From: Escherichia coli
GTDB taxonomy: Bacteria > Pseudomonadota > Gammaproteobacteria > Enterobacterales > Enterobacteriaceae
Reading direction: 5' to 3' (one strand)
DNA: 64,000 nt
Assembly (NCBI RefSeq): GCF_003334355.1
Contig: NZ_QOWP01000020.1
The notes beneath the pieces are model-generated. The model saw nothing but the letters and a program-made list of their open reading frames with translations. It made no database searches and had not been told where the DNA came from. A program made the position numbers and the translations under genes. This document shows positions 1 to 15,976 of the stretch, piece after piece; the stretch's first letter is position 1; each line of letters begins with the position of its first letter.

Positions 1-1
1 G

Positions 2-619
2 GAAAAACGAGTATTTTTAGTCATCCTGTTTACCTCTTTCTCAGGGAGTTTAGTCTCCAGGATTTCCGGGGCGGTTCAGAAGGAGGGGTATCGCCTACGC
101 TTTCATACCGGCAATAAGCAACGTATTTATTCCCTTTTGCATGACGGGAGCGCCGATCTCGCTGTTACCGCATCTATGCCTGATGACCGTCTGTACGGCT
201 ATGCACATCTACTGACTGAACGCATGCTCCTTGTTCATGCTCCCGCCATGTCAGAGATCATCGGATCAGAACCTGGTGCTGAAACGCTTGCCTCATTACC
301 GCTGATTGCTTATGACGAAGAGTTGCCACTGATTAGAGCGCTCTGGGCCTCCATGTTTCAGAGAGCCCCTGAGATGCAGGCTACATTCACCATTCCGGAT
401 TTACGTATTATCCGCGACTTGGTCTGTGACGGCCACGGGTGGACAGTGCTGCCGGATTATCACTGTGACAATGACCTGAAAAGTGGTCGCCTGATTTCAG
501 TGACACCTGCAGACCTCGCTCCGACTAATCATCTTTATCTGGTCTGGAACAAAAGGACGGCTAATAACAGCCGAACCGCCTATGTTCGGGATTACATTCT
601 TAAAACGTTTCCGCGTTGA
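2..619 (+). CDS. LysR-family transcriptional regulator, C-terminal effector-binding part only (5' end is off-window)
   Basis: The frame of track ORF 137..619 stays open back to nt 2 (EKRVFLVILFTSFSGSLVSRISGAVQKEGYRLRFHTGNKQRIYSLLHDGSADLAVTAS...). The sequence looks like a LysR substrate-binding domain. No HTH is visible because the N-terminus lies upstream of the window. Confidence 0.65.
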   Translation, partial: EKRVFLVILFTSFSGSLVSRISGAVQKEGYRLRFHTGNKQRIYSLLHDGSADLAVTASMPDDRLYGYAHLLTERMLLVHAPAMSEIIGSEPGAETLASLPLIAYDEELPLIRALWASMFQRAPEMQATFTIPDLRIIRDLVCDGHGWTVLPDYHCDNDLKSGRLISVTPADLAPTNHLYLVWNKRTANNSRTAYVRDYILKTFPR

Positions 620-655
620 TGTTTGAAACGGATGATTGGCGATGCGTATCATAAG

Positions 656-694
656 TTACGTATGTCCGCTTCTGGCACAAAGCAGACGCCCACT
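656..694. repeat. Hairpin repeat copy A (core 664-687: gtccgctt-ctggcaca-aagcagac), preceded by TTAC
   Basis: Read directly from the sequence. 8-nt inverted arms with one mismatch flank an 8-nt spacer. 28/38 nt are identical to copy B at 4329-4367, in direct orientation. Confidence 0.8.
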
Positions 695-749
695 CTCACG
701 CGAATGCTTTGCCCTTGACTTGCCAACAACCGTATCGCTTGCTCCGCAA

Positions 750-2042
750 CTATGGTTTTTTATTAGAATCTTCGCCACTAAATAAATTATAATAAATTGA
801 TTTTATTAGATATCTGTCAGAATCTATATGGTCAGCACGAGTAGCATGCTCTAATGTTTCAAATGCTAGGGTTTGTGCGGCTTCAGCAAAAATTCCAGGC
901 CAACCCTTACTCAGCATCGACAGTCCTTTAAGTACCCTTATCTGAATTTCCCTCATACTGGCACCATCGCGCGCAACAGGTGAGAAAAAGTCTTCAAGTA
1001 GATCGTTATTCTGAAGTGGTGCAACATGTACAGAAGGATATTTCACTTCTATTTCATCAGATTTATTCTGCGCGTAAGCGGAAAGTATACGTACACCTCT
1101 GCCAATGACATCAATGGCGGTTCCAGGATCGTTCACTGCGGGGGAAAGGGCTCGGCAGGCTATTTCGGCCATGACGCTAAGACAAAATCGGGGGTCCTGA
1201 GCAAATGAACGTACATCCGAGACAATAATCGTCTCAAGTAAATCGGTGCTGATTGATGACTCCTGGCCCTGACTCAGGTACAAAACTGGCGTGGACGGAT
1301 GTATGAAACTGCCCGGCTGCGCCACGAGGTATACATGACGGGGATCATTGGTCAGCAGCTTGCTGAGTTTCACCATATCAACATATTCAACATAGCCAAT
1401 CTTTTTCGGATAAACTGCAACCGTTCCTTTCGGCTGTTCATTGTTCTCAAGCCATGGATATCCGCCGAGACAGGGATTTCTTGCTCTCGCAATAAATGTT
1501 TCGATGGCCGCCTGTTCTACTTTTGCCGTTGTCTCACCAACCCTCCCCAGAGAGGTCAAATGCTGTATCCAGCGAAGCAATGTGATGAGGATTAAGGCAA
1601 TGACAACCAGTGTTACAATGAATAAAATGACTCTCCCCCTTTCTCCATAAGCTCCCATATTGAGGGCAATAATCCCTACCAGACTGAAGAGAAAAGAACC
1701 GATGAAGGTGGCCAGTACATTTTGTGTGGTGACGTCTTCAACAACTAAACGAGTAGCTCTGGGAGTCACATTAGTAGTGGCTGAACCGTAGGCTGTGACC
1801 ATGATGCTCAGCGAAAATGTGGTCACTGCCAGCATACTCGATGCCAGTATGTTCAGAATGTTATCGACTGCTTCCGCACCAACCTTCACGGAAACCGACT
1901 CAGGTATCATTGATTTAAAAAGAATTGATAAAAGGGCCGTTATTATTGCGACAATTGCGAATAACGTTGCCCTGAACCATAGTTTTTTAAATGTCTGCTT
2001 CAGCATCCATTTCCAGCGTGAAATCATTCTGCATTCCCTCAT
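750..2042 (-). CDS. Integral membrane protein, DUF2254-like (4 N-terminal TM helices plus a soluble C-terminal domain)
   Basis: 430-aa ORF. Four hydrophobic helices lie in residues ~20-165, including a motif resembling DUF2254 (ATRLVVEDVTTQNVLATFIGSFLFSLVGIIAL). The coding sequence is AT-rich. An alternative start is Met6 (nt 2027). The family assignment is from memory. Confidence 0.55.
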   Translation of the reverse strand: MRECRMISRWKWMLKQTFKKLWFRATLFAIVAIITALLSILFKSMIPESVSVKVGAEAVDNILNILASSMLAVTTFSLSIMVTAYGSATTNVTPRATRLVVEDVTTQNVLATFIGSFLFSLVGIIALNMGAYGERGRVILFIVTLVVIALILITLLRWIQHLTSLGRVGETTAKVEQAAIETFIARARNPCLGGYPWLENNEQPKGTVAVYPKKIGYVEYVDMVKLSKLLTNDPRHVYLVAQPGSFIHPSTPVLYLSQGQESSISTDLLETIIVSDVRSFAQDPRFCLSVMAEIACRALSPAVNDPGTAIDVIGRGVRILSAYAQNKSDEIEVKYPSVHVAPLQNNDLLEDFFSPVARDGASMREIQIRVLKGLSMLSKGWPGIFAEAAQTLAFETLEHATRADHIDSDRYLIKSIYYNLFSGEDSNKKP

Positions 2043-2062
2043 ATTGCAGCCGGGATAAATAA

Positions 2063-2083
2063 ATGCCGCCTCTGTGGCGGCAT
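2063..2083 (-). terminator. Rho-independent terminator downstream of the BCCT transporter gene
   Basis: Stem atgccgcc/ggcggcat with a 5-nt loop. On the minus strand it is followed by tttattta. It lies in the 48-nt gap between the two minus-strand genes. Confidence 0.6.
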
Positions 2084-2090
2084 GTTGCTG

Positions 2091-4094
2091 TTAACGAACC
2101 AGATGCAGGAAGTGCAGGTGTTTTTCGTACTGGTCCAGTATGTCATTAATCAGCTGTTCCTGATTCCAGCCCATTACATCATAATTTTGGCCGCCCTCTT
2201 TGAGATAGACTTCAGCGCGATAATATCGATGTTGTTCACTCTGCTGCTCATCATTATCCAGCGCAGCGAGCGCGAAGGTCGGTGAGTTATACCCGCGAAG
2301 CCTCACTTCATATATATAATTCAGCTCGTTGCCCAAATCGACTTCAAGGCGAATACGATCCTCGGCGGCGTCACTGATGTGGCTTATCGTTCCCTGCTTG
2401 TTAAGTTCCTCCTGAACCAGCGTCATGGCGGGTTGGATAATGTCGTCCATAAAACGTTTCACAAGAGAGCGCTTCGGCAAATACGCGATATTGCGTAACC
2501 TTCTCTGCCAGGGAATTGGGTTACGTGCAGCCGTAGGAGCAATAGTCGCCATGCTAAGGCTTTCACGCTTGGTCAAATCCCGACGCAGGGCTTTTAACAG
2601 TCCGTATATGGATATTAATAAGATAACTGAGAAGGGCAATGCACTCGCTATCGTTACGGTTTGCAACGCACTCAGCCCCCCTGCGATCAGCAGGGCAATA
2701 GCAACAACGCCCATGAGCGATGCCCAGAAAATTCGCTGCCAGACGGGCGTGTTTGCCACCCCACCTGATGCCAGAGTATCCACAACCATTGCCCCCGAAT
2801 CAGCAGACGTTACAAAGAAGACGATGACCATCGCCATTGCAATGAATGACAGCACGGAAGAGAACGGGAAATGCTCCAGGAAATTAAACAGGGCAAGCGC
2901 AACATCCTGCTGAACGGTATTGGCGAGGTCAGTGGCGCCCTGGTTCATGATGAGATAGATGGCGCTGTTTCCAAACACCGTCATCCACATGAGCGTAAAG
3001 CCGGCGGGAACAAACAACACGCCAGTCACGAACTCACGAATTGTCCTGCCGCGGGAAACGCGTGCAATGAACATACCTACAAACGGCGACCATGAAAGCC
3101 ACCATCCCCAGTATAATAATGTCCAGCCCCCCAGCCAGTTGCTCGACTTGGGTTCATACGCGTAAAGGTTGAACGTTTTACTCACCAGTTCCGACAGATA
3201 ACCACCCGTATTTTCCACAAATGACTTCAGCAGAAGCACAGTGGGACCCAGGCACAAGACCAGCGCCAGGAGCAACACCGCCAGGCCCAGATTAAGCTCA
3301 GACAGGATGCGTATTCCCTTGTCCAGGCCGGACACCACCGAAATCGTCGCTAACCCCGTGATGACCACGATCAAAATGACCTGTACCGTTTCATTGATGG
3401 GCACGCCGAAAAGATGGTTCAAACCGGCATTCACCTGCAATACACCGTAACCCAGCGATGTTGCAACGCCAAAGACAGTGCCTATCACGGCGAAGATATC
3501 AACCGCGTGGCCTATAGGCCCGTAAATGCGATCGCCGATAATGGGATAGAGCGCAGAACGCAGCGTTAAAGGCAGACCGTGACGGTAACTGAAAAAGGCC
3601 AGAATCAGCGCCACGATGGCATAAATTGCCCATGCGTGCAGACCCCAGTGGAAGAACGTCAGGCGCATGGCTTCCTTCGCTGCCGCAACGGTCTCTGGAG
3701 TGCCGACAGGTGGCGAAAGATAATGCATCACAGGTTCGGCAACGCCAAAGAACATCAGGCCGATCCCCATCCCTGCCGAAAAAAGCATCGCGAACCAGGA
3801 GTGGTAGCTGAAATCAGGCTGCGCATGGTCTGGGCCCAGCTTTATATCACCGTAACGTGAGAGTCCAAGGAACGTGACGCTCAGTAAAATCAGGGCCACA
3901 GCAAGTATGTAGAACCAGCTGGCATTCGTGAAGATTTGTTGCTGAAGTAGTTTAAAATTTTTGTCGGCGACATCCGGGAATACGGCGGCAAAGGCGACAA
4001 GAAGGAAAATTAGCAAAGCAGATGTAAAGAATACCGCTTTGTTAATCTGGCTTGTAGACTTCTTTGGGGTTGTATCATTTTCACTCATAATCAT
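2091..4094 (-). CDS. BCCT-family transporter, BetT-like (choline/betaine-type osmolyte symporter) with a long cytoplasmic C-terminal domain
   Basis: The 667-aa ORF aligns by eye along its whole length with E. coli BetT (e.g. WFAMLFSAGMGIGLMFFGVAEP, RSALYPIIGDRIYGPIGHAVDIFAVIGTVFGVATSLG, GWTLLYWGWWLSWSPFVGMFIARVSRGRTIREF, C-terminal ILDQYEKHLHFLHL). It is a paralogue, not betT itself. Confidence 0.85.
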   Translation of the reverse strand: MIMSENDTTPKKSTSQINKAVFFTSALLIFLLVAFAAVFPDVADKNFKLLQQQIFTNASWFYILAVALILLSVTFLGLSRYGDIKLGPDHAQPDFSYHSWFAMLFSAGMGIGLMFFGVAEPVMHYLSPPVGTPETVAAAKEAMRLTFFHWGLHAWAIYAIVALILAFFSYRHGLPLTLRSALYPIIGDRIYGPIGHAVDIFAVIGTVFGVATSLGYGVLQVNAGLNHLFGVPINETVQVILIVVITGLATISVVSGLDKGIRILSELNLGLAVLLLALVLCLGPTVLLLKSFVENTGGYLSELVSKTFNLYAYEPKSSNWLGGWTLLYWGWWLSWSPFVGMFIARVSRGRTIREFVTGVLFVPAGFTLMWMTVFGNSAIYLIMNQGATDLANTVQQDVALALFNFLEHFPFSSVLSFIAMAMVIVFFVTSADSGAMVVDTLASGGVANTPVWQRIFWASLMGVVAIALLIAGGLSALQTVTIASALPFSVILLISIYGLLKALRRDLTKRESLSMATIAPTAARNPIPWQRRLRNIAYLPKRSLVKRFMDDIIQPAMTLVQEELNKQGTISHISDAAEDRIRLEVDLGNELNYIYEVRLRGYNSPTFALAALDNDEQQSEQHRYYRAEVYLKEGGQNYDVMGWNQEQLINDILDQYEKHLHFLHLVR

Positions 4095-4328
4095 TTATTC
4101 CATTAATTAAATCCGCACTGGATAGAAGGTACTACCTCTCACAGAGTAGCAAAGTTCAACTGGCTATGCGGGGTTAATCGGAATGCATGGTGGAATGAGT
4201 GCCGATACAAATCATCCTATATTCTAAGGAGTTTTAAGTTACTCAGCCTGCCAATTACTGGGGCATTTAATTTGTATGATCTGTATCAAAGCTGGGATAT
4301 AAGTTAAGTGAAGTATATTAGGCACGAA

Positions 4329-4367
4329 TTACCAGCGTCTGCTCTTGGCACAAAGCGGACAACCACG
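4329..4367. repeat. Hairpin repeat copy B (core 4337-4360: gtctgctc-ttggcaca-aagcggac), preceded by TTAC
   Basis: Read directly from the sequence. It has the same 8-8-8 geometry as copy A. Its left arm matches the complement of A's right arm, and the reverse also holds. Confidence 0.8.
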
Positions 4368-4428
4368 CTAGCTCTACCCTGTGCCACAAAATGTCAATTT
4401 GCATCTGAACTAATGCACTTTAATCTCG

Positions 4429-4851
4429 TCACTTCAATAAATACCGAACATCCCCCTGATAAAACGACAATATGCGCTGCATAACTTCGCTCTTCCGGCA
4501 CTCGCGACAGATTATGTTTAGGCGACTGTCGTAGCGACGTATTTCTCCGTCAGGTAATGACCAGATAAGGTCCGGATCAACCACAACCGGTTTCTTCAGC
4601 TTTGCCCTCGATAATTTTTTGCGGGCATTTTGCCAGTCTTTACGAGCCTGTTCAGACGGGAATAACCCGTAGCCAGAATTGTATACATCGCCACTGGCAA
4701 CCAGCTCTCTGGCCAGAACGCTCATCAGATATCTTGTTGCCCCAGTTTTAGCTTCCAGTTGTCGTAACGTCTCGCGCCCACTCTGGCGTACGAGTTCAAG
4801 AACCTGCCCTTTAATTTTTTCCCGCTCTTCTTGTGTAAAAACTTTTGCCAC
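4429..4851 (-). CDS. Hypothetical prophage protein (140 aa), last phage-like ORF before the cargo
   Basis: The ORF is co-directional with, and 40 nt downstream of, the replication gene. The N-terminal part looks winged-helix-like (GRETLRQLEAKTGATRYLMSVLARELV), followed by a basic central stretch. I do not recognise the family. Confidence 0.45.
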   Translation of the reverse strand: MAKVFTQEEREKIKGQVLELVRQSGRETLRQLEAKTGATRYLMSVLARELVASGDVYNSGYGLFPSEQARKDWQNARKKLSRAKLKKPVVVDPDLIWSLPDGEIRRYDSRLNIICRECRKSEVMQRILSFYQGDVRYLLK

Positions 4852-4891
4852 AAGCCCTCCTGAAAATTACCTCATGACCAGAAATTAACAC

Positions 4892-5968
4892 TTACCCCCT
4901 GAAGCCCGGCGGAATTTCGTTATCCGGTTCAGAAATATGATTCACACAACGCTGGTTGTTCGTGCCGCTTACCGGGAGCAACCAGGGGTTCTCAAAATTC
5001 CGGTCCGGTCCAAAAAACGTCGTCGCTCGCTGAACAAATTCCGTTCCCGTTTTCCCGGTAGCCGCCAAGTATCTTGCGTAACGCCTCACGCCATCCAGCA
5101 TGGCCTCTGGTGGCACCCCCTCGCGTAATCTGGCCTTCCAGGCACTGAAAGCGGATTTCTTCGGGTTTGCCCCAGCACGCAACGGGTACTCCCGCCAGAC
5201 CTGTTCGAACACATCCGGATAATCCACTCGTCCCACAGACTGCCCGGTGTTTTCCGGGACTACCCGATCGGCTTCCCGCTGAATGGCGGAATCGGCTTCA
5301 GGCTGCTGCAGTTGGTGTGATTGCTCCGCCCTTGCGGTCATCACCTGCTGCACAGCGCCCGAATCGGCTTTCAGCGCATACGCTGAATCGGCTTCCGGTG
5401 TCGTGCCTGCTGGCTGACCAAGATTGACGGTCTGAACATCCCCTGCCTGGTTCGTGGCGTTTTTTACGCCATGGACCATAGTGTTTTGATCTTCTTGATC
5501 TGTATCTTTATCTGTATCTTTATCTGTCGTGACTCGTCGTGACATGTGCGTGACATTTCGTGACGCGCCGTGACAATCGCCATTTTGTTCCCGCTTTCTT
5601 TCCCTCTCTCGCTGCGCCCTCTTGCGCTCTGCAGGAGATTTTGCGGTTTGCGAAATATTGCCGTTGTCCTCTTTAAGCACCTGGCGTTTTTCCCATCCAG
5701 TGATTAAATCACCATCAAGTACCCGCCCCTGCATCGTCTGCAAAATTGAATCAATTACCTCTTCTGTCACGTCGAGCGCACTTGCCAAATCTTCTGTCGT
5801 GACATCAATGTGACCTCGCGTGACATTTCGTGACGCGCTCACCAGGAGGTGGATATACACTGCCATCACTGTTGCAATTGGCTGTCCTGACACCCTGGCA
5901 ATTGTTCGCCACTTAGGGTCATTTGGCATGTCATGCCATAATCTGAGCCAGGCGTTAGCCATACTCAC
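4892..5968 (-). CDS. Prophage replication protein, YdaU-like (DUF1376-type, lambda O analogue)
   Basis: 358-aa ORF. Its position after the cro/cII-like genes matches the lambdoid replication module. It starts MSMANAWLRLWHDMPNDPKWR. The C-terminal segment YPDVFEQVWREYPLRAGANPKKSAFSAWKARL is typical of prophage replication proteins. The gene contains phased iterons. The family name is from memory. Confidence 0.6.
   Translation of the reverse strand: MSMANAWLRLWHDMPNDPKWRTIARVSGQPIATVMAVYIHLLVSASRNVTRGHIDVTTEDLASALDVTEEVIDSILQTMQGRVLDGDLITGWEKRQVLKEDNGNISQTAKSPAERKRAQRERERKREQNGDCHGASRNVTHMSRRVTTDKDTDKDTDQEDQNTMVHGVKNATNQAGDVQTVNLGQPAGTTPEADSAYALKADSGAVQQVMTARAEQSHQLQQPEADSAIQREADRVVPENTGQSVGRVDYPDVFEQVWREYPLRAGANPKKSAFSAWKARLREGVPPEAMLDGVRRYARYLAATGKTGTEFVQRATTFFGPDRNFENPWLLPVSGTNNQRCVNHISEPDNEIPPGFRG
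5499..5574. repeat. Putative prophage origin, part 1: AT-rich 12-bp tandem (tctgtatcttta x2.4, 5499-5527) abutting five phased CGTGAC iterons
   Basis: CGTGAC occurs at 5528, 5538, 5549, 5559 and 5569, giving spacings of 10/11/10/10 bp. All copies are in the same orientation and lie inside the replication gene. Confidence 0.6.
5793..5838. repeat. Putative prophage origin, part 2: second cluster of four phased (C)GTGAC iterons
   Basis: Copies at 5798, 5809 (tgtgac), 5819 and 5829. The 46-nt block 5793-5838 is a diverged copy of 5523-5568, exactly 270 bp away. It includes a perfect 21-nt repeat gcgtgacatttcgtgacgcgc (5548-5568 and 5818-5838). Confidence 0.6.
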
Positions 5969-6033
5969 CTCTTTTGATACCGAATCTTTTTACTCACAAA
6001 TTGCCGGAAGTGATCCGGTATGAATATTGCGCG

Positions 6034-6459
6034 TCAATGCACAGCCACAATATTTCCTGCAGGGCCACCACGATTCATCTGGTTGAAACCAGCGATCGCC
6101 ACTGCGACAAAATCATCAGCGTCTCTCACCAGTCGTTCCCGCGTCTCCACTAGTTCCCGAAAATAGGCTGAGCTATGGCTGCGCATTCGGGCCACCAGCA
6201 GAGGTGGCATTGCTTTTTCGATAGCTGGTAACAACGCCTGAATTTTTTCAACTGCATCAGGGGTGTCTTTCTCTACCCAGCGGAAAATTTTCTGGGTATT
6301 GCGAGCCAGGGCTTCCGGATGGCTGTCGTCATACAGTTCTGGGAACGTCATACCCAGTTCAAAATAAGCCCTGGTTATTTCAGCTGCCGGAACTTTTTCA
6401 CCGTCCGGATGCGCCCAGGCATTCATCGCCATGCGGATGTGTTCATGCTTGATTTTCAT
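6034..6459 (-). CDS. YdaT-family protein (CII-like regulator of Rac-type prophages)
   Basis: The 141-aa ORF shares its start (MKIKHEHI) and end (..VAVH) with K-12 YdaT as I remember it, but the interior diverges. It sits directly after the cro-like gene. Confidence 0.6.
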   Translation of the reverse strand: MKIKHEHIRMAMNAWAHPDGEKVPAAEITRAYFELGMTFPELYDDSHPEALARNTQKIFRWVEKDTPDAVEKIQALLPAIEKAMPPLLVARMRSHSSAYFRELVETRERLVRDADDFVAVAIAGFNQMNRGGPAGNIVAVH

Positions 6460-6724
6460 GAATCAAGCTCCTAGAAAGTGGTTGTGTTAACATTTTGGTA
6501 TCTTCCAGCTCGGGCCAAATATTCATCCAATCAAAAGGCCTTAGTTGCTGACGTGTAACTTCACCATTACTGGCTCGCTCAATAAGGACACATAACGATG
6601 CCCCTAACACTTGACCTTTACTCAATGCCTTTCTTAGATAACCGATGCTGGTACCACACTCGCATGCAAACATACGCTGTTCATCTGACGAAAGAGAATT
6701 GAGAAATATTCTTAATTCTTCCAT
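6443..6724 (-). CDS. Cro/YdaS-like HTH protein
   Basis: 93-aa ORF transcribed divergently from the repressor gene across the operator region. It has an HTH-like segment (ECGTSIGYLRKALSKGQ) and overlaps the ydaT-like gene by 17 nt. It differs from K-12 YdaS (from memory). Confidence 0.55.
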   Translation of the reverse strand: MEELRIFLNSLSSDEQRMFACECGTSIGYLRKALSKGQVLGASLCVLIERASNGEVTRQQLRPFDWMNIWPELEDTKMLTQPLSRSLIHENQA

Positions 6725-6752
6725 AGCTACTCCTTAGTAAACACAGCAAAGA

Positions 6753-6830
6753 ATACCCATAGGTAAACAAAAGTCAATACCCACAGGTTGTTTACCTTGC
6801 AGTAATCGCATCTATTATTTACCTATGGAC
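6753..6830. promoter_or_regulatory. Operator cluster between the cro-like and repressor genes (OR-like)
   Basis: There are three copies of a 13-14-bp palindromic motif ATACCyAyrGGTAt: atacccataggta (6753-6765), atacccacaggtt (6777-6789) and a weaker tttacctatggac (6818-6830). The weaker copy overlaps the repressor ATG at 6825. Confidence 0.6.
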
Positions 6831-7244
6831 AAATATGAATTTAGACGACAGCAACTCATCAAAATTCGTGATGAGAAATGCGATGGTAAAGCGGTTAACG
6901 TGGCCAGAAAGATCGGGCGCGAGCCTTCTTATGTATCAAGAATGTTGTACCCAGAGGGGAAAAAGGGAAAAAAACGGATCGCTGATGATATGGTGGAGAT
7001 TATCGAAGAGTCCTTTGGGTTACCCCGGGGATGGATGGATGGTATCGTTTCATCATCAACGAACACAGCCTCCAGTTATGAAACAAGGGTTCTAACGCCA
7101 CGACAACGTATTTTTTTAGATCTCTTAGACGAACTGCCAGAAAGTGAAGCGGATAACTTATTAAAAACTCTTGAAGAGAAAAAACAGTATTACAATATGA
7201 TCTACGAAGAAATCCGTAAAAAGAAAGCACAAAACGCATCATAG
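6825..7244 (+). CDS. Prophage repressor (RacR/CI-like HTH protein)
   Basis: 139-aa ORF divergent from the cro-like gene. It has an HTH (GKAVNVARKIGREPSYVSRML) and is flanked on both sides by the same operator motif. There is no Shine-Dalgarno sequence before the ATG. Confidence 0.6.
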   Translation: MDKYEFRRQQLIKIRDEKCDGKAVNVARKIGREPSYVSRMLYPEGKKGKKRIADDMVEIIEESFGLPRGWMDGIVSSSTNTASSYETRVLTPRQRIFLDLLDELPESEADNLLKTLEEKKQYYNMIYEEIRKKKAQNAS

Positions 7245-7286
7245 CTCACCAAACAACTAGTCACCAGTTAAGACACCGTAAAAAGT

Positions 7287-7324
7287 TACCCATGGGTATT
7301 TACTTTTTAAATACCTATGGGTAT
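7287..7324. promoter_or_regulatory. Second operator pair downstream of the repressor gene (OL-like)
   Basis: tacccatgggta (7287-7298, with a perfect palindrome acccatgggt) and atacctatgggtat (7311-7324). This is the same motif as at 6753-6830. Confidence 0.6.
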
Positions 7325-7498
7325 CCTTCTTTTCATACCAACCCACCCCGCCCCACAGAATGCAGGGCAATACTTCGAGTTACCAGGCAGTGGTCAGGGG
7401 TTAAGTAGCCAGCCCGAGGCGTAAGAACATGACGGCGGGATTCAAATTTTGCAGTGCAGCAGTTAGTTCCGCCACCCGGCGTTAAGGGGAGAGATAAG

Positions 7499-7633
7499 AT
7501 GGTGCATTACGAAGTAGTTCAGTATTTGATGGATTGTTGCGGTATCACTTACAACCAGGCTGTGCAGGCTTTACGCAGCAACGACTGGGATCTCTGGCAG
7601 GCAGAAGTCGCTATACGTAGCAACAAGATGTGA
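7499..7633 (+). CDS. ydaG: Rac prophage small protein YdaG (44 aa)
   Basis: Below the ORF-track cutoff. My translation is MVHYEVVQYLMDCCGITYNQAVQALRSNDWDLWQAEVAIRSNKM, which I recognise as K-12 YdaG. Confidence 0.8.
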   Translation: MVHYEVVQYLMDCCGITYNQAVQALRSNDWDLWQAEVAIRSNKM

Positions 7634-7643
7634 GATTCGCAAA

Positions 7644-7799
7644 ATGCAAAAAATCGACCTCGGCAACAACGAATCCCTGGTGTGCGGCGTGTTCCCCAAC
7701 CAGGATGGAACGTTCACTGCCATGACGTATACCAAAAGCAAAACATTTAAAACCGAAACTGGTGCGCGCCGATGGTTGGAGAAGCACACAGTAAGCTAA
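7644..7799 (+). CDS. ydaF: Rac prophage small protein YdaF (51 aa)
   Basis: Below the ORF-track cutoff. My translation is MQKIDLGNNESLVCGVFPNQDGTFTAMTYTKSKTFKTETGARRWLEKHTVS. Confidence 0.8.
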   Translation: MQKIDLGNNESLVCGVFPNQDGTFTAMTYTKSKTFKTETGARRWLEKHTVS

Positions 7800-8284
7800 C
7801 GATTAAAACGTCTACTCCTGCTGTTCCAGAATAACTTCATAAAATGGGAGTATTTTTCGGTGACGAGATAATAAGAACAGTTTGCGCTATCACTCTGATG
7901 TTGAATGATGCCCTTCCGTTCTAATTTTTTCATAACCGGGTTACGGCAAGGAGAAGTGATAATAAGATTTCCTGTTTTAAGGAAATCTTTAAATACAGCG
8001 ATTTCTTTCTCAGATAAACGAAGCAATACTCGTTGCTCTGGTAGTAATGAATAATGCTTTTGAATATGTGCTCGCAATCTTGAGAAGGAAATGGCGACCA
8101 CGAAAGAAAAGGCAAAAACGATAATCTGAAAGAGCCAAGGTATTTCAGTATAAGCATTGAATGCGACAGTAAACTCTTTCGGTATCAGCCAGAGAGTGAG
8201 ACCAAAAATGATAATCGTATACATAAGTCTTTCGAGTGGCTCGTTAGCAAAAAGTTTCAACAATGGAGTAAATACATCCAACAT
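7796..8284 (-). CDS. sieB: Superinfection exclusion protein SieB
   Basis: Track ORF 7796..8407 contains the K-12 SieB sequence from Met42 (MLDVFTPLLKLFANEPLERLMY...). This gives the known 162-aa product. Confidence 0.9.
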   Translation of the reverse strand: MLDVFTPLLKLFANEPLERLMYTIIIFGLTLWLIPKEFTVAFNAYTEIPWLFQIIVFAFSFVVAISFSRLRAHIQKHYSLLPEQRVLLRLSEKEIAVFKDFLKTGNLIITSPCRNPVMKKLERKGIIQHQSDSANCSYYLVTEKYSHFMKLFWNSRSRRFNR

Positions 8285-8725
8285 ATCAATAACTCTCAAC
8301 TGTAAGGGTATTGAAATGTTAACACAAGCTCTCGCTGTAGGGGTATAGCCGAGACCACCGAAGCCCGGAGGTGGTGAAATAAAACCGGGCACAACACGAA
8401 GGCGCATTTCCGATATCCATAAAGAGTCGGTCTTGTCTGTTAAATTTAAATGGTGGGAGTGCGCCTCCGGTTGTAAATAACGACATTGCTGTGTGTAGTC
8501 CTGGCGGCATCAGTTTTTTTCTTGAAGTTCGGCTGATGTCCGCCCTTTTTAAAGTGAATTTTGTGATGCGGTGAATGCGGCTAAGCGCACGTGGCACAGT
8601 TAAAAGTCATGTTAGTCCTTATTGGTTTGGGTGGGAAAGCCGACTGTAATTGTTAACTGGTTGCAGTCACCTGGAGGCACCAGACACCGCATCAACAAAG
8701 TTCATTTGTAAAAATGGAGATAATT

Positions 8726-8947
8726 ATGATTGCACATCACTTCGGAACTGATGAAATACCACGTCAGTGTGTGACTCCTGGCGATTATGTTCTTCATGAA
8801 GGCCGGACATATATTGCCTCGGCAAACAATATTAAAAAGCGAAAACTATATATTCGTAACCTGACCACAAAAACATTCATTACTGACCGCATGATTAAAG
8901 TCTTCCTCGGTCGTGATGGTTTACCTGTAAAGGCGGAGTCATGGTGA
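8726..8947 (+). CDS. kilR: Rac prophage FtsZ inhibitor KilR
   Basis: 73-aa product [38 protein letters not shown]... within track ORF 8714..8947. Confidence 0.9.
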
Positions 8948-9117
8948 TGACTAAGAAAATAAAATGTGCTTACCACCTTTGCAAAAAAGACGTTGAAGAA
9001 AGCAAAGCTATTGAAAGAATGCTTCACTTCATGCACGGGATTTTATCAAAAGACGAACCGAGAAAATATTGCAGTGAAGCTTGTGCCGAAAAAGACCAGA
9101 TGGCACATGAACTTTAA
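8947..9117 (+). CDS. ydaE: Rac prophage Cys4 small protein YdaE (56 aa)
   Basis: Below the ORF-track cutoff. The product is [56 protein letters not shown]. Its ATG overlaps the kilR stop (gTGATGa). Confidence 0.85.
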   Translation: MTKKIKCAYHLCKKDVEESKAIERMLHFMHGILSKDEPRKYCSEACAEKDQMAHEL

Positions 9118-9191
9118 TTAATTGACTATTCGAAACTGAATTTATGCCAGAAATGGCAGGTATTCGCTCAACCTTAATTAAGGAGAAAAAC

Positions 9192-9467
9192 ATGATTACC
9201 AATTATGAAGCCACTGTTGTAACTACCGATGACATTGTTCACGAGGTGAATCTGGAAGGAAAGCGCATTGGCTACGTAATTAAAACAGAAAATAAAGAAA
9301 CCCCATTCACTGTGGTTGATATCGATGGTCCATCAGGCAACGTAAAAACACTTGATGAAGGTGTCAAAAAAATGTGCCTGGTGCATATCGGAAAGAATCT
9401 GCCCGCAGAAAAAAAAGCCGAATTTCTGGCAACTCTAATTGCAATGAAATTAAAAGGTGAAATCTGA
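9192..9467 (+). CDS. racC: Rac prophage protein RacC
   Basis: 91-aa product MITNYEATVVTTDDIVHEVNLEGKRIGYV... A strong SD (aaggagaaaaacATG) precedes the start. It lies inside track ORF 9144..9467. Confidence 0.9.
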   Translation: MITNYEATVVTTDDIVHEVNLEGKRIGYVIKTENKETPFTVVDIDGPSGNVKTLDEGVKKMCLVHIGKNLPAEKKAEFLATLIAMKLKGEI

Positions 9468-9472
9468 AAGAA

Positions 9473-9497
9473 ATAGCCTGCGTATGGCGCAGGCTAT
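9473..9497 (+). terminator. Hairpin between racC and recE (possible attenuator or terminator; no T-run)
   Basis: 10-bp perfect stem atagcctgcg/cgcaggctat with a 5-nt loop. Confidence 0.35.
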
Positions 9498-9568
9498 GAA
9501 CAGTGTGTATCCGGCAAGATCATTCACTGAACAAAACGAATTTTAATCTGAGTTGAGGTTAAAAAACA

Positions 9569-12169
9569 ATGAGCACAAAACCACTCTTCCTGTTACGGAA
9601 AGCGAAAAAATCATCCGGTGAACCTGACGTCGTCCTGTGGGCAAGCAACGATTTTGAATCGACCTGTGCCACTCTGGACTACCTGATCGTTAAGTCAGGT
9701 AAAAAACTGAGCAGCTATTTTAAAGCTGTTGCCACGAATTTTCCTGTCGTTAATGACCTGCCCGCTGAAGGTGAGATCGATTTTACCTGGAGTGAACGCT
9801 ATCAACTCAGCAAAGACTCCATGACATGGGAACTAAAACCGGGAGCAGCACCAGACAACGCTCACTATCAAGGCAATACCAACGTCAACGGCGAAGACAT
9901 GACTGAGATTGAGGAGAATATGCTACTCCCAATTTCTGGCCAGGAACTGCCCATTCGTTGGCTTGCTCAACACGGCAGCGAAAAACCGGTAACGCACGTT
10001 TCACGCGACGGACTCCAGGCATTACACATTGCTCTGGCTGAAGAACTACCGGCTGTTACTGCCCTGGCTGTTTCCCACAAAACCAGCCTGCTCGACCCGC
10101 TGGAAATTCGCGAACTCCACAAACTGGTTCGTGACACTGACAAAGTTTTCCCTAATCCTGGTAATTCAAACCTGGGACTGATAACTGCTTTTTTCGAAGC
10201 ATACCTGAACGCTGACTACACCGATCGAGGACTGCTGACAAAAGAGTGGATGAAGGGTAATCGTGTTTCACACATCACTCGCACGGCTTCCGGTGCTAAT
10301 GCTGGCGGCGGAAACCTCACCGATCGCGGCGAAGGTTTCGTACACGATCTGACGTCACTGGCGCGCGACGTAGCCACTGGCGTACTGGCCCGTTCAATGG
10401 ATCTGGACATCTATAACCTTCATCCGGCACACGCTAAACGCATTGAGGAAATTATCGCTGAAAATAAACCGCCCTTTTCTGTTTTCCGCGACAAATTCAT
10501 CACCATGCCTGGCGGGCTGGATTATTCCCGCGCCATCGTGGTTGCGTCCGTAAAAGAAGCACCAATTGGGATCGAGGTCATCCCCGCGCACGTCACTGAA
10601 TATCTGAACAAAGTACTGACTGAAACCGATCATGCCAACCCTGATCCGGAAATCGTGGATATTGCCTGCGGTCGCTCCTCTGCCCCGATGCCGCAGCGAG
10701 TAACAGAAGAAGGAAAACAGGATGATGAAGAAAAACCGCAACCATCTGGAACAACGGCAGTTGAACAGGGAGAGGCTGAAACAATGGAACCGGACGCAAC
10801 TGAACATCATCAGGACACGCAGCCGCTGGATGCTCAGTCACAGGTAAATTCTGTTGATGCGAAATATCAGGAACTGCGGGCAGAACTCCATGAAGCCCGG
10901 AAAAACATTCCATCAAAAAATCCTGTCGATGACGATAAATTGCTTGCTGCATCACGTGGTGAATTTGTTGACGGAATTAGCGACCCGAACGATCCGAAAT
11001 GGGTAAAGGGGATCCAGACTCGCGATTGTGTGTACCAGAACCAGCCAGAAACGGAAAAAACCAGCCCAGATATGAATCAACCTGAGCCAGTAGTGCAACA
11101 GGAACCGGAAATAGCCTGCAATGCCTGCGGCCAGACTGGCGGGGATAACTGCCCTGACTGTGGTGCGGTGATGGGCGACGCAACATACCAGGAAACATTC
11201 GATGAAGAGAGTCAGGTTGAAGCTAAGGAAAATGATCCGGAGGAAATGGAAGGCGCTGAACATCCGCACAATGAGAATGCTGGCAGCGATCCGCATCGCG
11301 ATTGCAGTGATGAAACTGGCGAAGTCGCAGATCCCGTAATCGTAGAAGACATAGAGCCAGGTATTTATTACGGAATTTCGAATGAGAATTACCACGCGGG
11401 TCCCGGTATCAGTAAGTCTCAGCTCGATGACATTGCTGATACTCCGGCACTATATTTGTGGCGTAAAAATGCCCCCGTGGACACCACAAAGACAAAAACG
11501 CTCGATTTAGGAACTGCTTTCCACTGCCGGGTACTTGAACCGGAAGAATTCAGTAACCGCTTTATCGTAGCACCTGAATTTAACCGCCGTACAAACGCCG
11601 GAAAAGAAGAAGAGAAAGCGTTTCTGATGGAATGCGCAAGCACAGGAAAAACGGTTATCACTGCGGAAGAAGGCCGGGAAATTGAACTCATGTATCAAAG
11701 CGTTATGGCTTTGCCGCTGGGGCAATGGCTTGTTGAAAGCGCCGGACACGCTGAATCATCAATTTACTGGGAAGATCCTGAAACAGGAATTTTGTGTCGG
11801 TGCCGTCCGGACAAAATTATCCCTGAATTTCACTGGATCATGGACGTGAAAACTACGGCGGATATTCAACGATTCAAAACCGCTTATTACGACTACCGCT
11901 ATCACGTTCAGGATGCATTCTACAGTGACGGTTATGAAGCACAGTTTGGAGTGCAGCCAACTTTCGTTTTTCTGGTTGCCAGCACAACTATTGAATGCGG
12001 ACGTTATCCGGTTGAAATTTTCATGATGGGCGAAGAAGCAAAACTGGCAGGTCAACAGGAATATCACCGCAATCTGCGAACCCTGTCTGACTGCCTGAAT
12101 ACCGATGAATGGCCAGCTATTAAGACATTATCACTGCCCCGCTGGGCTAAGGAATATGCAAATGACTAA
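9569..12169 (+). CDS. recE: Exodeoxyribonuclease VIII RecE
   Basis: 866-aa ORF, the same length as K-12 RecE. It has an acidic central region and a C-terminal nuclease domain, and is followed by the overlapping recT. Confidence 0.95.
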
Positions 12170-12971
12170 GCAACCACCAATCGCAAAAGCCGATCTGCAA
12201 AAAACTCAGGGAAACCGTGCACCAGCAGCAGTTAAAAATAGCGACGTGATTAGTTTTATTAACCAGCCATCAATGAAAGAGCAACTGGCAGCAGCTCTTC
12301 CACGCCATATGACGGCTGAACGTATGATCCGTATCGCCACCACAGAAATTCGTAAAGTTCCGGCGTTAGGAAACTGTGACACTATGAGTTTTGTCAGTGC
12401 GATCGTACAGTGTTCACAGCTCGGACTTGAGCCAGGTAGCGCCCTCGGTCATGCATATTTACTGCCTTTTGGTAATAAAAACGAAAAGAGCGGTAAAAAG
12501 AACGTTCAGCTAATCATTGGCTATCGCGGCATGATTGATCTGGCTCGCCGTTCTGGTCAAATCGCCAGCCTGTCAGCCCGTGTTGTCCGTGAAGGTGACG
12601 AGTTTAGCTTCGAATTTGGCCTTGATGAAAAGTTAATACACCGCCCGGGAGAAAACGAAGATGCCCCGGTTACCCACGTCTATGCTGTCGCAAGACTGAA
12701 AGACGGAGGTACTCAGTTTGAAGTTATGACGCGCAAACAGATTGAGCTGGTGCGCAGCCTGAGTAAAGCTGGTAATAACGGGCCGTGGGTAACTCACTGG
12801 GAAGAAATGGCAAAGAAAACGGCTATTCGTCGCCTGTTCAAATATCTGCCCGTATCAATTGAGATCCAGCGTGCAGTATCAATGGATGAAAAGGAACCAC
12901 TGACAATCGATCCTGCAGATTCCTCTGTATTAACCGGGGAATACAGTGTAATCGATAATTCAGAGGAATAA
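12162..12971 (+). CDS. recT: Single-strand annealing recombinase RecT
   Basis: 269-aa product from [24 protein letters not shown]... The ATG overlaps the recE stop. It lies inside track ORF 12105..12971. Confidence 0.95.
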
Positions 12972-12979
12972 TTCAGCCT

Positions 12980-12998
12980 GGCGGTGTAATGCACCGCC
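12980..12998 (+). terminator. Hairpin after recT
   Basis: Stem ggcggtg/caccgcc with a 5-nt loop. A T-run (atatttttt) begins about 11 nt downstream. Confidence 0.35.
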
Positions 12999-13027
12999 AA
13001 CTTGAAATATTTTTTATGAGAAAAATT

Positions 13028-13222
13028 ATGAGATATGACAATGTTAAACCATGTCCATTTTGTGGTTGTCCATCAGTAACGGTGAAAGCCATTTCAGGAT
13101 ATTACCGAGCGAAGTGTAACGGATGCGAATCCCGAACCGGTTATGGTGGAAGTGAAAAAGAAGCACTCGAAAGATGGAATAAACGAACCACTGGAAATAA
13201 TAATGGAGGTGTTCATGTATAA
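13028..13222 (+). CDS. ralR: Restriction alleviation protein / type I toxin RalR (Lar)
   Basis: 64-aa zinc-ribbon product MRYDNVKPCPFCGCPSVTVKAISGYYRAKCNGCESRTGYGGSEKEALERWNKRTTGNNNGGVHV. Confidence 0.9.
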   Translation: MRYDNVKPCPFCGCPSVTVKAISGYYRAKCNGCESRTGYGGSEKEALERWNKRTTGNNNGGVHV

Positions 13223-13424
13223 AATTACCGCCACTATTGAAAAGGAAGGTGGCACTCCTACTAACTGGACAAGATATTCAAAATCTAAACTAACGAAATC
13301 AGAATGCGAAAAAATGCTCTCAGGTAAAAAAGAAGCAGGCGTTTCCAGAGAGCAGAAAGTAAAACTGATAAATTTTAATTGCGAGAAACTTCAGTCCTCG
13401 AGAATTGCATTGTATTCAAATTAA
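13215..13424 (+). CDS. ydaC: Rac prophage protein YdaC
   Basis: 69-aa product MYKITATIEKEGGTPTNWTRYSKSKL... It overlaps the ralR stop by 8 nt. Confidence 0.85.
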   Translation: MYKITATIEKEGGTPTNWTRYSKSKLTKSECEKMLSGKKEAGVSREQKVKLINFNCEKLQSSRIALYSN

Positions 13425-13502
13425 AACTTCATAGCTGATTATTAATAATCAACATCGGGCGTCAATTTCAGTCTAACATTGGCGCCTGCCAGAGGTGATG
13501 CG

Positions 13503-13718
13503 ATGGCACAAGTAATCTTTAATGAAGAGTGGATGGTTGAATACGGCCTGATGCTTCGCACTGGTCTGGGGGCCAGACAAATTGAAGCATACCGCCAGAA
13601 CTGTTGGGTGGAGGGCTTCCACTTCAAACGAGTATCTCCTTTAGGTAAGCCAGACAGCAAACGAGGGATTATCTGGTACAACTATCCAAAGATAAATCAG
13701 TTTATCAAAGACTCATGA
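13503..13718 (+). CDS. xisR: Rac prophage excisionase XisR (YdaQ)
   Basis: 71-aa product [35 protein letters not shown]..., immediately upstream of intR. Confidence 0.85.
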
Positions 13719-13719
13719 T

Positions 13720-14955: not shown

Positions 14956-15006
14956 TTGCAAAGTTTGCCCCCAATTTGCCCCATTTAGTACCAGAGAACT
15001 GAAATA

Positions 15007-15942
15007 ATGCAAGAAAATCAACAAATTACAAAGAAAGAACAATACAACCTGAACAAATTACAAAAACGTCTGCGTCGTAACGTGGGCGAAGCCATTGCTG
15101 ACTTCAATATGATTGAAGAAGGCGATCGCATCATGGTTTGCCTCTCCGGGGGTAAAGACAGCTATACCATGCTGGAGATTCTGCGCAATTTGCAGCAAAG
15201 CGCGCCAATCAATTTTTCGCTGGTGGCTGTTAACCTCGATCAAAAGCAACCGGGCTTCCCGGAACACGTTCTGCCCGAGTATCTTGAAAAGCTGGGCGTT
15301 GAGTACAAGATTGTTGAAGAGAATACTTACGGTATCGTGAAAGAGAAGATTCCAGAGGGCAAAACCACTTGCTCACTGTGTTCTCGCCTTCGTCGCGGTA
15401 TCCTTTATCGTACCGCAACGGAACTGGGGGCGACGAAGATCGCGTTGGGTCACCATCGTGACGATATCCTGCAAACGTTGTTCTTAAATATGTTCTACGG
15501 CGGTAAGATGAAAGGTATGCCTCCGAAACTGATGAGCGATGATGGCAAACATATCGTTATTCGTCCGCTGGCCTACTGCCGCGAGAAAGATATTCAGCGA
15601 TTTGCCGATGCAAAAGCGTTCCCGATTATTCCGTGCAACCTGTGCGGTTCACAGCCTAACCTGCAACGTCAGGTGATTGCTGACATGTTGCGTGACTGGG
15701 ATAAACGTTATCCAGGGCGTATCGAGACGATGTTCAGCGCGATGCAGAATGTGGTGCCGTCGCATCTGTGCGATACCAACCTGTTCGATTTCAAAGGCAT
15801 CACCCACGGTTCTGAAGTGGTTAACGGGGGTGATCTGGCGTTTGATCGCGAAGAGATCCCACTACAACCGGCGGGCTGGCAGCCAGAAGAAGATGAAAAT
15901 CAGTTGGATGAGTTACGGCTGAATGTGGTTGAAGTGAAATAA
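15007..15942 (+). CDS. ttcA: tRNA 2-thiocytidine(32) synthetase TtcA
   Basis: 311-aa ORF with the PP-loop SGGKDS and Cys motifs. It matches K-12 TtcA. In Rac lysogens the 5' end is supplied by the prophage. Confidence 0.95.
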
Positions 15943-15952
15943 CCAGGATAGC

Positions 15953-15976
15953 GCCCGATGCGCAAGCGTATCGGGC
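15953..15976 (+). terminator. Hairpin after ttcA
   Basis: Stem gcccgat/atcgggc with a 10-nt loop, 11 nt after the stop codon. Confidence 0.4.

Follow-up and report, generated by a model that had tools for sequence, protein, structure and literature searches.

The stretch of DNA analysed here (the window) comprises 64,000 nucleotides of Escherichia coli contig NZ_QOWP01000020.1. It begins within a block of cargo genes, which is followed by phage replication and immunity genes, the left arm of a Rac prophage and the chromosomal gene at the attachment site. The following features were identified, with gene coordinates in the Rac left arm carried over from the related locus L015.

1–79: terminal ~79 bp of an IS3-family element (IS1203/IS629-like), matching IS3-family transposase elements in thousands of records
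80–619, plus strand: 3' part (codons ~115–293) of a LysR-family regulator gene, the last gene of an MFS-ChaC-LysR cassette; Pfam LysR_substrate only
664–687: inner cassette-boundary motif GTCCGCT-TCTGGCACAA-AGCAGAC (repeat D1/I1), between the LysR cassette and the DUF2254-betU cassette
750–2027, minus strand: DUF2254 membrane protein gene, 425 aa, conserved partner of betU (Pfam PF10011, 1.6e-92)
2063–2083, minus strand: terminator- or attenuator-like hairpin separating betU from the DUF2254 gene, rich in G+C and with a weak T tract
2091–4088, minus strand: betU, BCCT-family glycine betaine/proline betaine transporter, 665 aa (Pfam BCCT, 7e-199), with a BetT-like C-terminal cytoplasmic tail
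4089–4336, minus strand: betU upstream region, part of the mobile cassette and invariant across the four slot contexts
4337–4360: right slot-boundary motif GTCTGCT-CTTGGCACAA-AGCGGAC, placed by motif comparison, after which the phage backbone resumes
4429–4851, minus strand: DUF977 phage gene (Pfam), 140 aa, the last backbone gene before the slot, kept beside it in phages Tritos and Evi and in many prophages
4892–5968, minus strand: replisome organiser, in the replication/immunity module (4892–7244)
6034–6459, minus strand: YdaT-like gene, same module
6443–6724, minus strand: YdaS/Cro-like gene, same module
6825–7244, plus strand: CI-like gene, same module
7334–14955: Rac left arm (ydaG, ydaF, sieB, kilR, racC, recE at 9569–12169, recT, ralR, rcbA, xisR, intR at ~13720–14955), 99.9% identical to K-12
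15007–15942, plus strand: ttcA, chromosomal gene at the Rac attachment site and left prophage end (match to K-12)

The transporter gene starts at 4088; the listing of open reading frames stretches its frame to 4094. Residues 21–506 of the protein cover the Pfam BCCT model in full (PF02028, positions 1–485 of 485, 661.7 bits), and the cut-offs of the NCBIfam models TIGR00842 and NF007399 are passed, with 752 bits for the BetT subfamily model. The long C-terminal tail noticed in an earlier note on this DNA is present, with about 160 aa after the BCCT domain. Like the K-12 choline:H+ symporter BetT, the protein has a BCCT fold with a long C-terminal cytoplasmic extension, and the two can be aligned end to end. 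However, it shares only 42% amino acid identity with BetT and is encoded outside any bet operon, and the substrates reported for BetU are betaines, not choline. The database name "choline transporter BetT" is probably over-specific.

The transporter itself is not a novelty; it is BetU, known since 2004 and present on Tn6062. Reportedly, BetU was described in E. coli HU734 by Ly et al. in 2004 (J Bacteriol 186:296), and BetU and TrkG are said to have been singled out some twenty years ago as the two accessory transporters for osmoregulation in E. coli, at a time when BetU was believed to be IS-borne. Glycine betaine and proline betaine are the reported substrates of BetU of HU734 and of Tn6062 on IncHI1 plasmids, and the two CDSs of Tn6062 confer growth in 0.8 M NaCl (Holt et al. 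2011, PMC3139670). For comparison, Tn6062 was represented by a DUF2254-BCCT pair flanked by IS1 on an IncHI1 plasmid of S. Typhi, recognised from its structure and from a match to a published cloning primer. The gene-specific 3' 20 nt of this primer match window positions 760–779 exactly. The second primer has no match in the window within 3 mismatches, and the locus there is diverged but alignable by eye.

BetU shares 98% amino acid identity with that in Tn6062 (651 of 665 residues), and the DUF2254 protein shares 98% with the second CDS of Tn6062 (418 of 425). The two genes are a known mobile salt-tolerance pair and are not new in themselves. As a BCCT secondary transporter, BetU would take up glycine betaine and proline betaine and so support growth of the lysogen at high osmolality, a function expected because it is near-identical to a characterised protein. 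Since the same two genes alone give salt tolerance from Tn6062, betU should require neither the adjacent LysR nor phage induction. A promoter scan of the 4089–4336 region found no sigma-70-like promoter upstream of betU on the minus strand.

The DUF2254 gene is more AT-rich than its surroundings, as had been remarked (G+C content 44.7%, GC3 41.8%, compared with 51.2% and 59.0% for betU and a G+C content of 49.8% for the whole window). The protein has no sequence relative in the PDB and no informative structural match, and homologues at ≤63% identity do not adjoin a BCCT gene. The terminator hairpin reported between the two genes is also present and terminator-like; on the gene strand it reads ATGCCGCC-ACAGA-GGCGGCAT, followed by TTATTTAT.

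The gene positions given in the earlier note stand, except that the gene listed there as a LysR regulator is a 3' fragment. The IS3-family end (97.5% identical to the ends of three IS3 copies in strain SLK172) splits a 293-codon gene at about codon 115, leaving the substrate-binding domain, with the HTH domain absent from the window. Intact 293-aa versions are found in loci L007, L015 and L001, and window position 79 aligns to position 22964 of L007. In this strain, the LysR-bearing cassette is disrupted by this IS3-family insertion.

The full block contains five genes, not three: MFS, ChaC-like gamma-glutamylcyclotransferase, LysR, DUF2254 and BCCT. The unity of the block, implied in the earlier note, does not hold, since it consists of two cassettes of different origins, with LysR a part of the MFS/ChaC cassette. 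An Enterobacter chromosome has the MFS-ChaC-LysR trio but no BetU, and in a Klebsiella chromosome MFS and LysR are present while the ChaC-like gene is lacking. Conversely, BetU-DUF2254 occurs without this LysR in Tn6062, a KpLE2-like island, Klebsiella plasmids, Enterobacter and Serratia elements, and three other slot arrays. A LysR-regulated transporter operon was considered and rejected, because the regulator is not kept beside BetU across contexts and also occurs without it. The cassette next to DUF977 (window 664–4336) is the mobile betU-DUF2254 pair, and the distal cassette, encoding an MFS exporter-like protein, the ChaC-like enzyme and LysR, has a separate, Enterobacter/Klebsiella-like chromosomal origin.

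The replication gene and the 140-aa ORF beyond the block had rightly been taken for phage genes. No blastn match of ≥150 bp to K-12 Rac was found for window 4429–7334, and racR, ydaS, ydaT, ydaU, ydaV and ydaW of K-12 type are not there. The replication/immunity proteins are instead those of a prophage at the Qin site in isolate NRZ103545. From 7334 to 18955, the window is 99.9% identical to K-12 Rac together with ttcA, dbpA and zntB. Its position beside ttcA and its intR-xisR-recET-kilR-sieB left arm place the element with Rac; judged by these alignments, it is a mosaic of a Rac left arm and a replication/immunity module that is not the K-12 Rac allele.

Near-identical relatives show the whole arrangement. 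Strain M10 carries a ~55 kb Rac prophage at ttcA in which the five-gene block lies between hokD and the DUF977 gene, with trkG also aboard, in the order ttcA-int...recET...cI-cro-ydaT-RepO-DUF977-[BetU-DUF2254-LysR-ChaC-MFS]-hokD-...-lysis-trkG-ParB-terminase-...-tail-pinR-uspF. In NRZ103545, a lambdoid prophage that appears to be complete holds the same block at the Qin site (rspB/ynfA). The block is prophage cargo and not flank, with genes of one prophage on both sides of it in M10 and NRZ103545, deep in full-length prophages at two attachment sites; the cargo reading offered in the earlier note was correct in this respect. Its statements that phage-like genes stop at the block and that the block stands instead of late genes were not. 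The apparent stop is the edge of the window, which starts within the block, and in near-identical relatives hokD and nin-like, Q, lysis and structural genes come after the block, which occupies an early-region slot. SLK172 and M10, which are 99.4–99.9% identical to the window, suggest that trkG and the late genes are also present in this strain. In fuller relatives, trkG occupies a second cargo slot, after the lysis genes, giving the lineage two solute-uptake genes.

The junctions were counted in 5,426 complete genomes. The BetU-DUF977 junction is present in 313, the LysR-DUF2254 junction in 298 and the hokD-side phage junction of the block in 285; virtually all LysR-DUF2254 junctions thus have a phage junction as their counterpart. 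The BetU-DUF977 junction is linked to the Rac left arm in 272 genomes, and the BetU block to trkG within 15 kb in 218, so that trkG accompanies the block in most cases. The block was also found in IMG/VR viral contigs (mostly prophage predictions), and none of the deposited genomes in the phage collection contains it.

The slot lies between the DUF977 gene, which follows the replication genes, and the hokD/nin region. Across 85 loci, 30 cargo types were distinguished in it, including AbiH, GmrSD-like, RelA/SpoT-like, reverse transcriptase and Mrr-like genes; many of the other cargo types are anti-phage genes. The isolated phages Tritos and Evi share both slot flanks and carry different cargo. 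The cassette boundaries coincide with a 24-nt palindromic motif with 7-bp arms, GTCCGCT/AGCGGAC, and a loop containing TGGCACA. Homology to the island, plasmid and Enterobacter copies starts at the motif at 664–687, and other Rac and lambdoid prophages match the window only from 4337 on. Over the 30 cargo types, conservation stays at ~90–100% as far as the end of the motif and drops to ~30–50% directly past it. For example, loci L005 and L064 agree base for base through TTCCGCTTATGGCACA and differ from the very next position. The junction at the inner motif recurs with four different left partners, among which the BetU cassette is 99.9–100% identical.

These observations suggest that the slot gains and loses cassettes through recombination at the motif that brackets every cassette. 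Window 80–4336 is very probably the surviving part of a two-cassette cargo array in the early-region accessory slot of a Rac-type lambdoid prophage at ttcA.

Several other roles for the motif were considered. When three motifs were folded on both strands, the hairpins were not thermodynamically unusual (z = -0.03 to -1.5), which lends no support to a role as stable structures. Intrinsic terminators were rejected as there are no consistent T tracts, and an Rfam scan of the slot found only sok, beside hokD, with the motifs in no family. The complement of the motif contains GTGCCAA, which is also the 7-bp core of the sfx site in the R64 shufflon. The arm beside it appears to differ from that of sfx, and the resemblance was treated as coincidence. 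The literature search found no discussion of the motif string in a phage context and no description of this slot.

The strongest alternative is that exchange occurs by general homologous recombination (RecA, or phage RecET/Red) between the backbone flanks of co-resident lambdoid prophages. The motifs would then not be recombination sites but would be kept for another reason, e.g. transcriptional insulation or RNA processing. The flanks are >90% identical over hundreds of bases, ample for exchange of the whole slot, the prophages encode RecET or a related exonuclease, and no dedicated recombinase is consistently present at the slot in 125 loci. However, where two unrelated cassettes meet inside an array, the junction coincides exactly with a motif copy, for which backbone homology offers no explanation. 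The motif also ends the betU cassette outside the slot, in the KpLE2-like island and at the tail end of an Enterobacter prophage, the plasmid junction was formed with a third motif copy in ydfV, and the cargo-proximal motif arms stay conserved beside unrelated cargo. We regard homologous exchange as a substantial possibility that falls somewhat short of an even chance.

Recombination at the motif might instead be carried out by a dedicated system, the slot being an integron-like exchange site of Enterobacteriaceae lambdoid prophages, from the replication module to hokD/nin, whose 24-nt site is used by a site-specific recombinase acting in trans. This proposal is tentative and on balance unlikely. 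One candidate enzyme would be a short tyrosine recombinase carried as a cassette in some slots. The slot of this prophage contains no integrase, and a 202-aa gene of the Phage_integrase family, considered as the slot recombinase, is present in only 8 of 125 loci and absent from K-12 Qin. As with integron cassettes and their attC sites, promoter-independent cassettes are stacked at one site, each with an imperfect palindrome and with crossover inside it. In contrast to integrons, the motif is much shorter (24 nt) and has no IntI-type integrase beside it; the two systems resemble each other only in layout, and the motif is presumably unrelated in sequence to attC. If the proposal is true, defence genes and cassettes of the betU-DUF2254 type are shuffled as discrete units between phages, plasmids and islands.

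Whatever drives the exchange, the slot can be compared with known phage accessory loci. Lambda carries the morons bor, lom and rexAB. Accessory and defence hotspots have also been described in temperate phages such as P2 and P4 (PMC9122126). The slot shares with these a fixed backbone position and many alternative, mostly anti-phage cargo genes, but it also holds metabolic and transport cassettes, which can be stacked and have the 24-nt palindrome at each junction. A stacked, motif-bounded phage cargo slot was not found described in the literature search. With at least 30 cargo types, many defence-related, the slot is a compact hotspot, and its sharp boundaries make it simple to mine for prophage cargo. 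Should these boundaries turn out to be recombination sites, they would also show a way in which lambdoid phages pick up morons.

The prophage pair and Tn6062 agree in gene order and spacing as well as in protein sequence, both BetU proteins have 665 aa, and the same function is expected of both. They are carried differently, however, the prophage pair forming a cassette bounded by motifs in a lambdoid slot and not an IS1 composite transposon or IS-flanked island. The element is not Tn6062 itself: both ends are free of IS1 in the window, M10 and NRZ103545, and the only IS in the window is the IS3-family end in LysR. The plasmid copies from E. coli and Shigella that are 99.9% identical to the prophage copy keep ~25 bp of phage backbone (to window 4361). 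These residual phage bases indicate that the plasmid copies came from the prophage, transfer thus having run from phage to plasmid. The finding is relevant to how the Tn6062-type salt-tolerance module has spread on resistance plasmids of typhoid and Klebsiella strains. No paper tying betU to Rac or any prophage was found in the literature search.

The same copies weigh against arrival of the pair in the prophage as a Tn6062-like composite transposon or by other IS-mediated transposition, with the motif incidental. The pair is indeed IS1-flanked in Tn6062 and IS-flanked in the KpLE2-like island, and copies of IS3, IS1 and ISNCY are scattered over the locus in SLK172, CAVP776 and this window. 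The uninterrupted versions (M10, NRZ103545 and IMG/VR loci) nevertheless have no IS at either cassette end, the prophage allele differs from the IS-flanked alleles by ~5.5% at the DNA level, and its junctions lie at the very motif that also borders 30 unrelated cargo types. Such an origin is very improbable.

Least credible of all, contradicted by the comparisons and practically negligible, is the flank alternative of the earlier note, taken here as ordinary chromosomal flank by uspF that was brought to the replication genes by deletion of the Rac late region: strain CAVP776, with the block directly between uspF and the Rac replication genes, looks flank-like if taken alone, but its layout is derived because IS1 copies mark both deletion ends (one precisely at the junction with uspF), phage genes spanning ~40 kb separate block and uspF in M10, the block recurs at a different attachment site in NRZ103545, the MFS-ChaC genes occur in E. 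coli only beside hokD-side phage sequence, and in the Rac-less E. coli 042 (one empty site in one strain) uspF directly adjoins ttcA and the block is absent.

The notion of two uptake cargos in one prophage lineage is literally true, with trkG and the BetU block ≤15 kb apart in the 218 genomes counted above. Both are host-physiology cargo for solute uptake. They differ in that trkG occupies another slot, after the lysis genes and before ParB and terminase, with no boundary motif nearby. Its description as K-12 Rac cargo downstream of the replication region was right as to cargo, whereas the position next to the replication region in K-12 is due only to deletion. Of the complete E. coli genomes, some 6% harbour betU in a prophage that is Rac-type or a related lambdoid, and in some 4% trkG shares that prophage. 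Both osmoadaptation genes can therefore be transferred by a single temperate-phage lineage, or be lost together in one deletion.

The window opens within the block, a five-gene array of MFS, ChaC-like, LysR, DUF2254 and BetU genes, and the following features were identified in it:

1-79, end of an IS3-family element, interrupting the LysR gene
137-619, + strand, LysR-type ORF fragment (open frame from position 80)
750-2027, - strand, DUF2254 gene, 425 aa
2063-2083, G+C-rich hairpin
2091-4088, - strand, BCCT transporter gene, 665 aa
4429-7244, DUF977, replisome organiser, YdaT-like, YdaS/Cro-like and CI-like genes

The observation made earlier from the sequence is real, with corrections. The DUF2254 gene, the hairpin and the BCCT gene all lie where they had been placed, and the DUF2254 gene (GC 44.7%, GC3 41.8%) is richer in AT than its neighbours, with 51.2% GC and 59.0% GC3 in the transporter gene. 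A LysR-type ORF is also present, but not as a whole gene: its 293 codons are cut near codon 115 by the IS3-family element end. The phage genes do not stop here; their apparent end is an effect of the window edge.

The earlier note left open whether the block is prophage cargo or chromosomal flank exposed by a deletion. Strain M10, which shares 99.4% identity with the window across 34 kb, carries a prophage of ~55 kb with the gene order ttcA, intR, xisR, recT/recE, kilR, sieB, cI, cro, ydaT, RepO, DUF977, then BetU, DUF2254, LysR, ChaC-like and MFS, then hokD, DUF1367, DUF1364, DUF1133, lysis genes, trkG, ParB, terminase, head/tail genes, lom, stf, tfa and pinR, with uspF last. Late genes thus come after the block and are not replaced by it. 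An apparently complete lambdoid prophage at rspB/ynfA in isolate NRZ103545 holds the identical five-gene block, again flanked by hokD and DUF977. E. coli 042, which lacks Rac, has uspF directly adjoining ttcA and does not carry the block. Among 5,426 complete genomes, the BetU-DUF977 junction was found in 313, the LysR-DUF2254 junction in 298 and the hokD-side/MFS junction in 285; in 272, BetU is linked with ttcA and the entire Rac left arm. The block was thus not seen at the same chromosomal position in the absence of a Rac-type prophage, 042 being the Rac-less strain compared, and the flank reading fails on the closest complete genomes. Strain CAVP776 looks flank-like, with the order uspF, IS1, MFS, ..., BetU, DUF977, and this arrangement is derived, from two IS1-bounded deletions. 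The IS1 copies lie at 16882-17579 and 30724-31421 of the retrieved locus; one deletion took out all that lay between MFS and attR/ttcC, the other recET through abgB, and a 13-kb Rac remnant including the five-gene block is kept. The block is prophage cargo.

From position 7334 onward, the Rac left arm, ttcA, dbpA and zntB are 99.9% identical to K-12. The immunity and replication module differs from the K-12 Rac allele, and its proteins, like the cargo, are those of the NRZ103545 lambdoid prophage at the Qin attachment site, with the switch to the K-12 Rac arm at about 7250-7334. With this K-12-type left arm joined to a module of another kind, the element is a mosaic prophage at the Rac site.

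The supposed parallel with trkG, two solute-uptake genes in one prophage lineage, holds: trkG and the block are linked within one 15-kb stretch in 218 genomes. In K-12, trkG seems to follow directly on the replication genes only because of a deletion that joins ydaW (the 5' part of a DUF1627 gene) to rzpR (an Rz remnant). The scar lies inside ydaW/rzpR at 15201/15202 of the K-12 Rac locus; on its left the sequence aligns to a DUF1627 gene in CAVP776, and on its right to the region of the Rz lysis gene that precedes trkG in M10 and SLK172. Through this deletion K-12 Rac has lost the S-R genes and the nin/Q region as well as DUF977 and the cargo slot.

The block consists of two cassettes. One is made up of MFS, the ChaC-like gene and LysR, which overlap and run in the same direction. 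An Enterobacter chromosome has this unit at 87% DNA identity with neither BetU nor DUF2254; a Klebsiella chromosome has MFS and LysR at ~83% and lacks the ChaC-like gene. The betU cassette (3,649 bp, 99.9-100% identity) recurs in the same slot with four left partners, namely the MFS-ChaC-LysR unit, an Mrr-like pair, a 447-aa ORF and a 326-aa ORF. Since each cassette thus occurs without the other, LysR has no conserved place as the regulator of the transporter module. Qin prophages are briefly noted to contain "ChaC" and a LysR gene in a paper on "grounded" prophages, which does not mention betU (PMC6379469).

The BCCT protein matches at 98% identity (651/665) its counterpart in a DUF2254-BCCT pair that is flanked by IS1 on a S. 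Typhi IncHI1 plasmid and by its structure corresponds to Tn6062; identity between the DUF2254 proteins is likewise 98%. Holt et al. cloned the two Tn6062 CDSs with a primer whose gene-specific 3' part (20 nt) matches the window exactly at 760-779. These two genes alone enable S. Typhi growth in 0.8 M NaCl, and the authors identify the transporter as BetU, which takes up glycine betaine and proline betaine and was originally discovered in E. coli from pyelonephritis (Holt et al., PMC3139670). The database name "choline transporter BetT" arises because the protein passes the NCBIfam BetT-subfamily model; it shares only 42% identity with K-12 BetT, and the long C-terminal tail is common to both. 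The transporter is thus BetU, a protein characterised before, and the DUF2254 protein is its customary partner. By homology, the window's allele would take up betaine, and the betU block is presumably expressed in the lysogen. DUF2254 homologues at ≤63% identity have no adjoining BCCT gene. The AlphaFold model of DUF2254 has a helical membrane region at the N terminus and a confidently predicted alpha/beta domain at the C terminus; fold comparison gave uninformative matches, and no relative was found in the PDB.

The slot, between the hokD and DUF977 genes, has flanks common to phages and prophages with wholly different cargo: an FRG-domain gene in phage Tritos, an acetyltransferase and a regulator in phage Evi, and four ORFs in strain EC6030. 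Slot homology stops at two 24-nt imperfect palindromes with identical 7-bp arms (GTCCGCT/AGCGGAC), and a third copy lies between the two cassettes:

hokD side, GTCCGCT-TTGAGCGAGG-AGCGGAC
DUF977 side, window 4337-4360, GTCYGCT-YYTGGCACAA-AGCGGAC
between cassettes, window 664-687, GTCCGCT-TCTGGCACAA-AGCAGAC
copies in other loci, NRZ103545 20483-20506; L008 6481 and 8282; L009 6481 and 7899; L005 10785 and 12001

An IMG/VR scan with the right-hand motif retrieved 120 loci, to which five fetched earlier were added. Both anchors are present in 85 of these 125, with 30 cargo types, including AbiH, GmrSD-like, RelA/SpoT-like, reverse-transcriptase, AAA_13, and HAD and NUDIX genes. The slot is an accessory and defence hotspot. 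Motif copies, with loops TTGAGCGAGG or YYTGGCACAA, occur at every slot boundary and at stacked-cassette junctions. Across the 30 cargo types, per-position conservation is ~90-100% up to and through the motif and ~30-50% from the next base, and the cargo-proximal motif half co-varies with the cargo. In slot loci L005 and L064 the sequence is the same up to the end of ...TTCCGCTTATGGCACA and diverges directly after it, into an integrase-family cassette in one and the betU cassette in the other, which locates the crossover precisely. The motif also heads the betU cassette in an island copy and in an Enterobacter prophage; it was not found near trkG. Cassettes would be gained, lost and stacked by recombination centred on the motif, either by a site-specific enzyme or by short homology. 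A 202-aa tyrosine-recombinase (Phage_integrase)-family gene forms its own cassette in 8/125 loci (L005 8202-8804, slot coordinates 1589-2197; also L066 and L057), with a TGGCACA motif copy ~37 bp beyond its 3' end; K-12 Qin lacks this gene. Folding showed the motif hairpins not to be unusually stable, no Rfam family matched them, and a literature search found no discussion of the motif. K-12 Qin carries one copy (GTCCGCTTTGTGCCAGGAGCAGCC) at 4970-5010 of its locus, inside ydfV and adjoining relB, which suggests that the motif delimits relBE too. A loose regular-expression match at window 40617-40638 (GTCCGCTTTAGTGGCAGCAAAC), chromosomal and far from the prophage, has another loop and arm and probably arose by chance.

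The betU gene is already known; Ly et al. (2004) reportedly grouped it with trkG as the accessory osmoregulatory genes of E. coli and described it with insertion sequences on its flanks. New relative to the findable literature are the residence of the pair in Rac-type prophages (~6% of complete E. coli genomes), its frequent co-carriage with trkG (~4%), the two-cassette structure of the block and the sharply bounded, motif-marked slot that holds it.

A 94% DNA allele of the pair lies in an IS-rich island adjoining acuR and the fec operon, and accounts for the majority of the ~1,374 genomes with some DUF2254 gene copy. The pair was found on 1,462 plasmids, mostly from Klebsiella (~93% identity); Salmonella IncHI1 plasmids carry it at 94.5%. 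E. coli/Shigella plasmids hold a 99.9% copy that keeps ~25 bp of phage backbone, to window position 4361, and this retained stretch points to a prophage-to-plasmid transfer. At the junction in these plasmids, the motif has recombined with another copy of it that lies in ydfV. The IncF multiresistance plasmid pYJ4-a (CTX-M-15, QnrS1) carries the prophage-allele DUF2254-betU at 8663-12470 (99.8%), with ~25 bp of phage backbone included, and a motif copy then joins it to ydfV'-relB-relE'; a resistance plasmid has here taken up a piece of prophage. The pair also occurs at the tail-fibre/invertase end of an Enterobacter asburiae prophage near icd (L144 4938-8366) and in an integrase-bearing, P4-like island of Serratia marcescens (L146 4943-8263), where two Usp genes and a YmgB-like gene accompany it.
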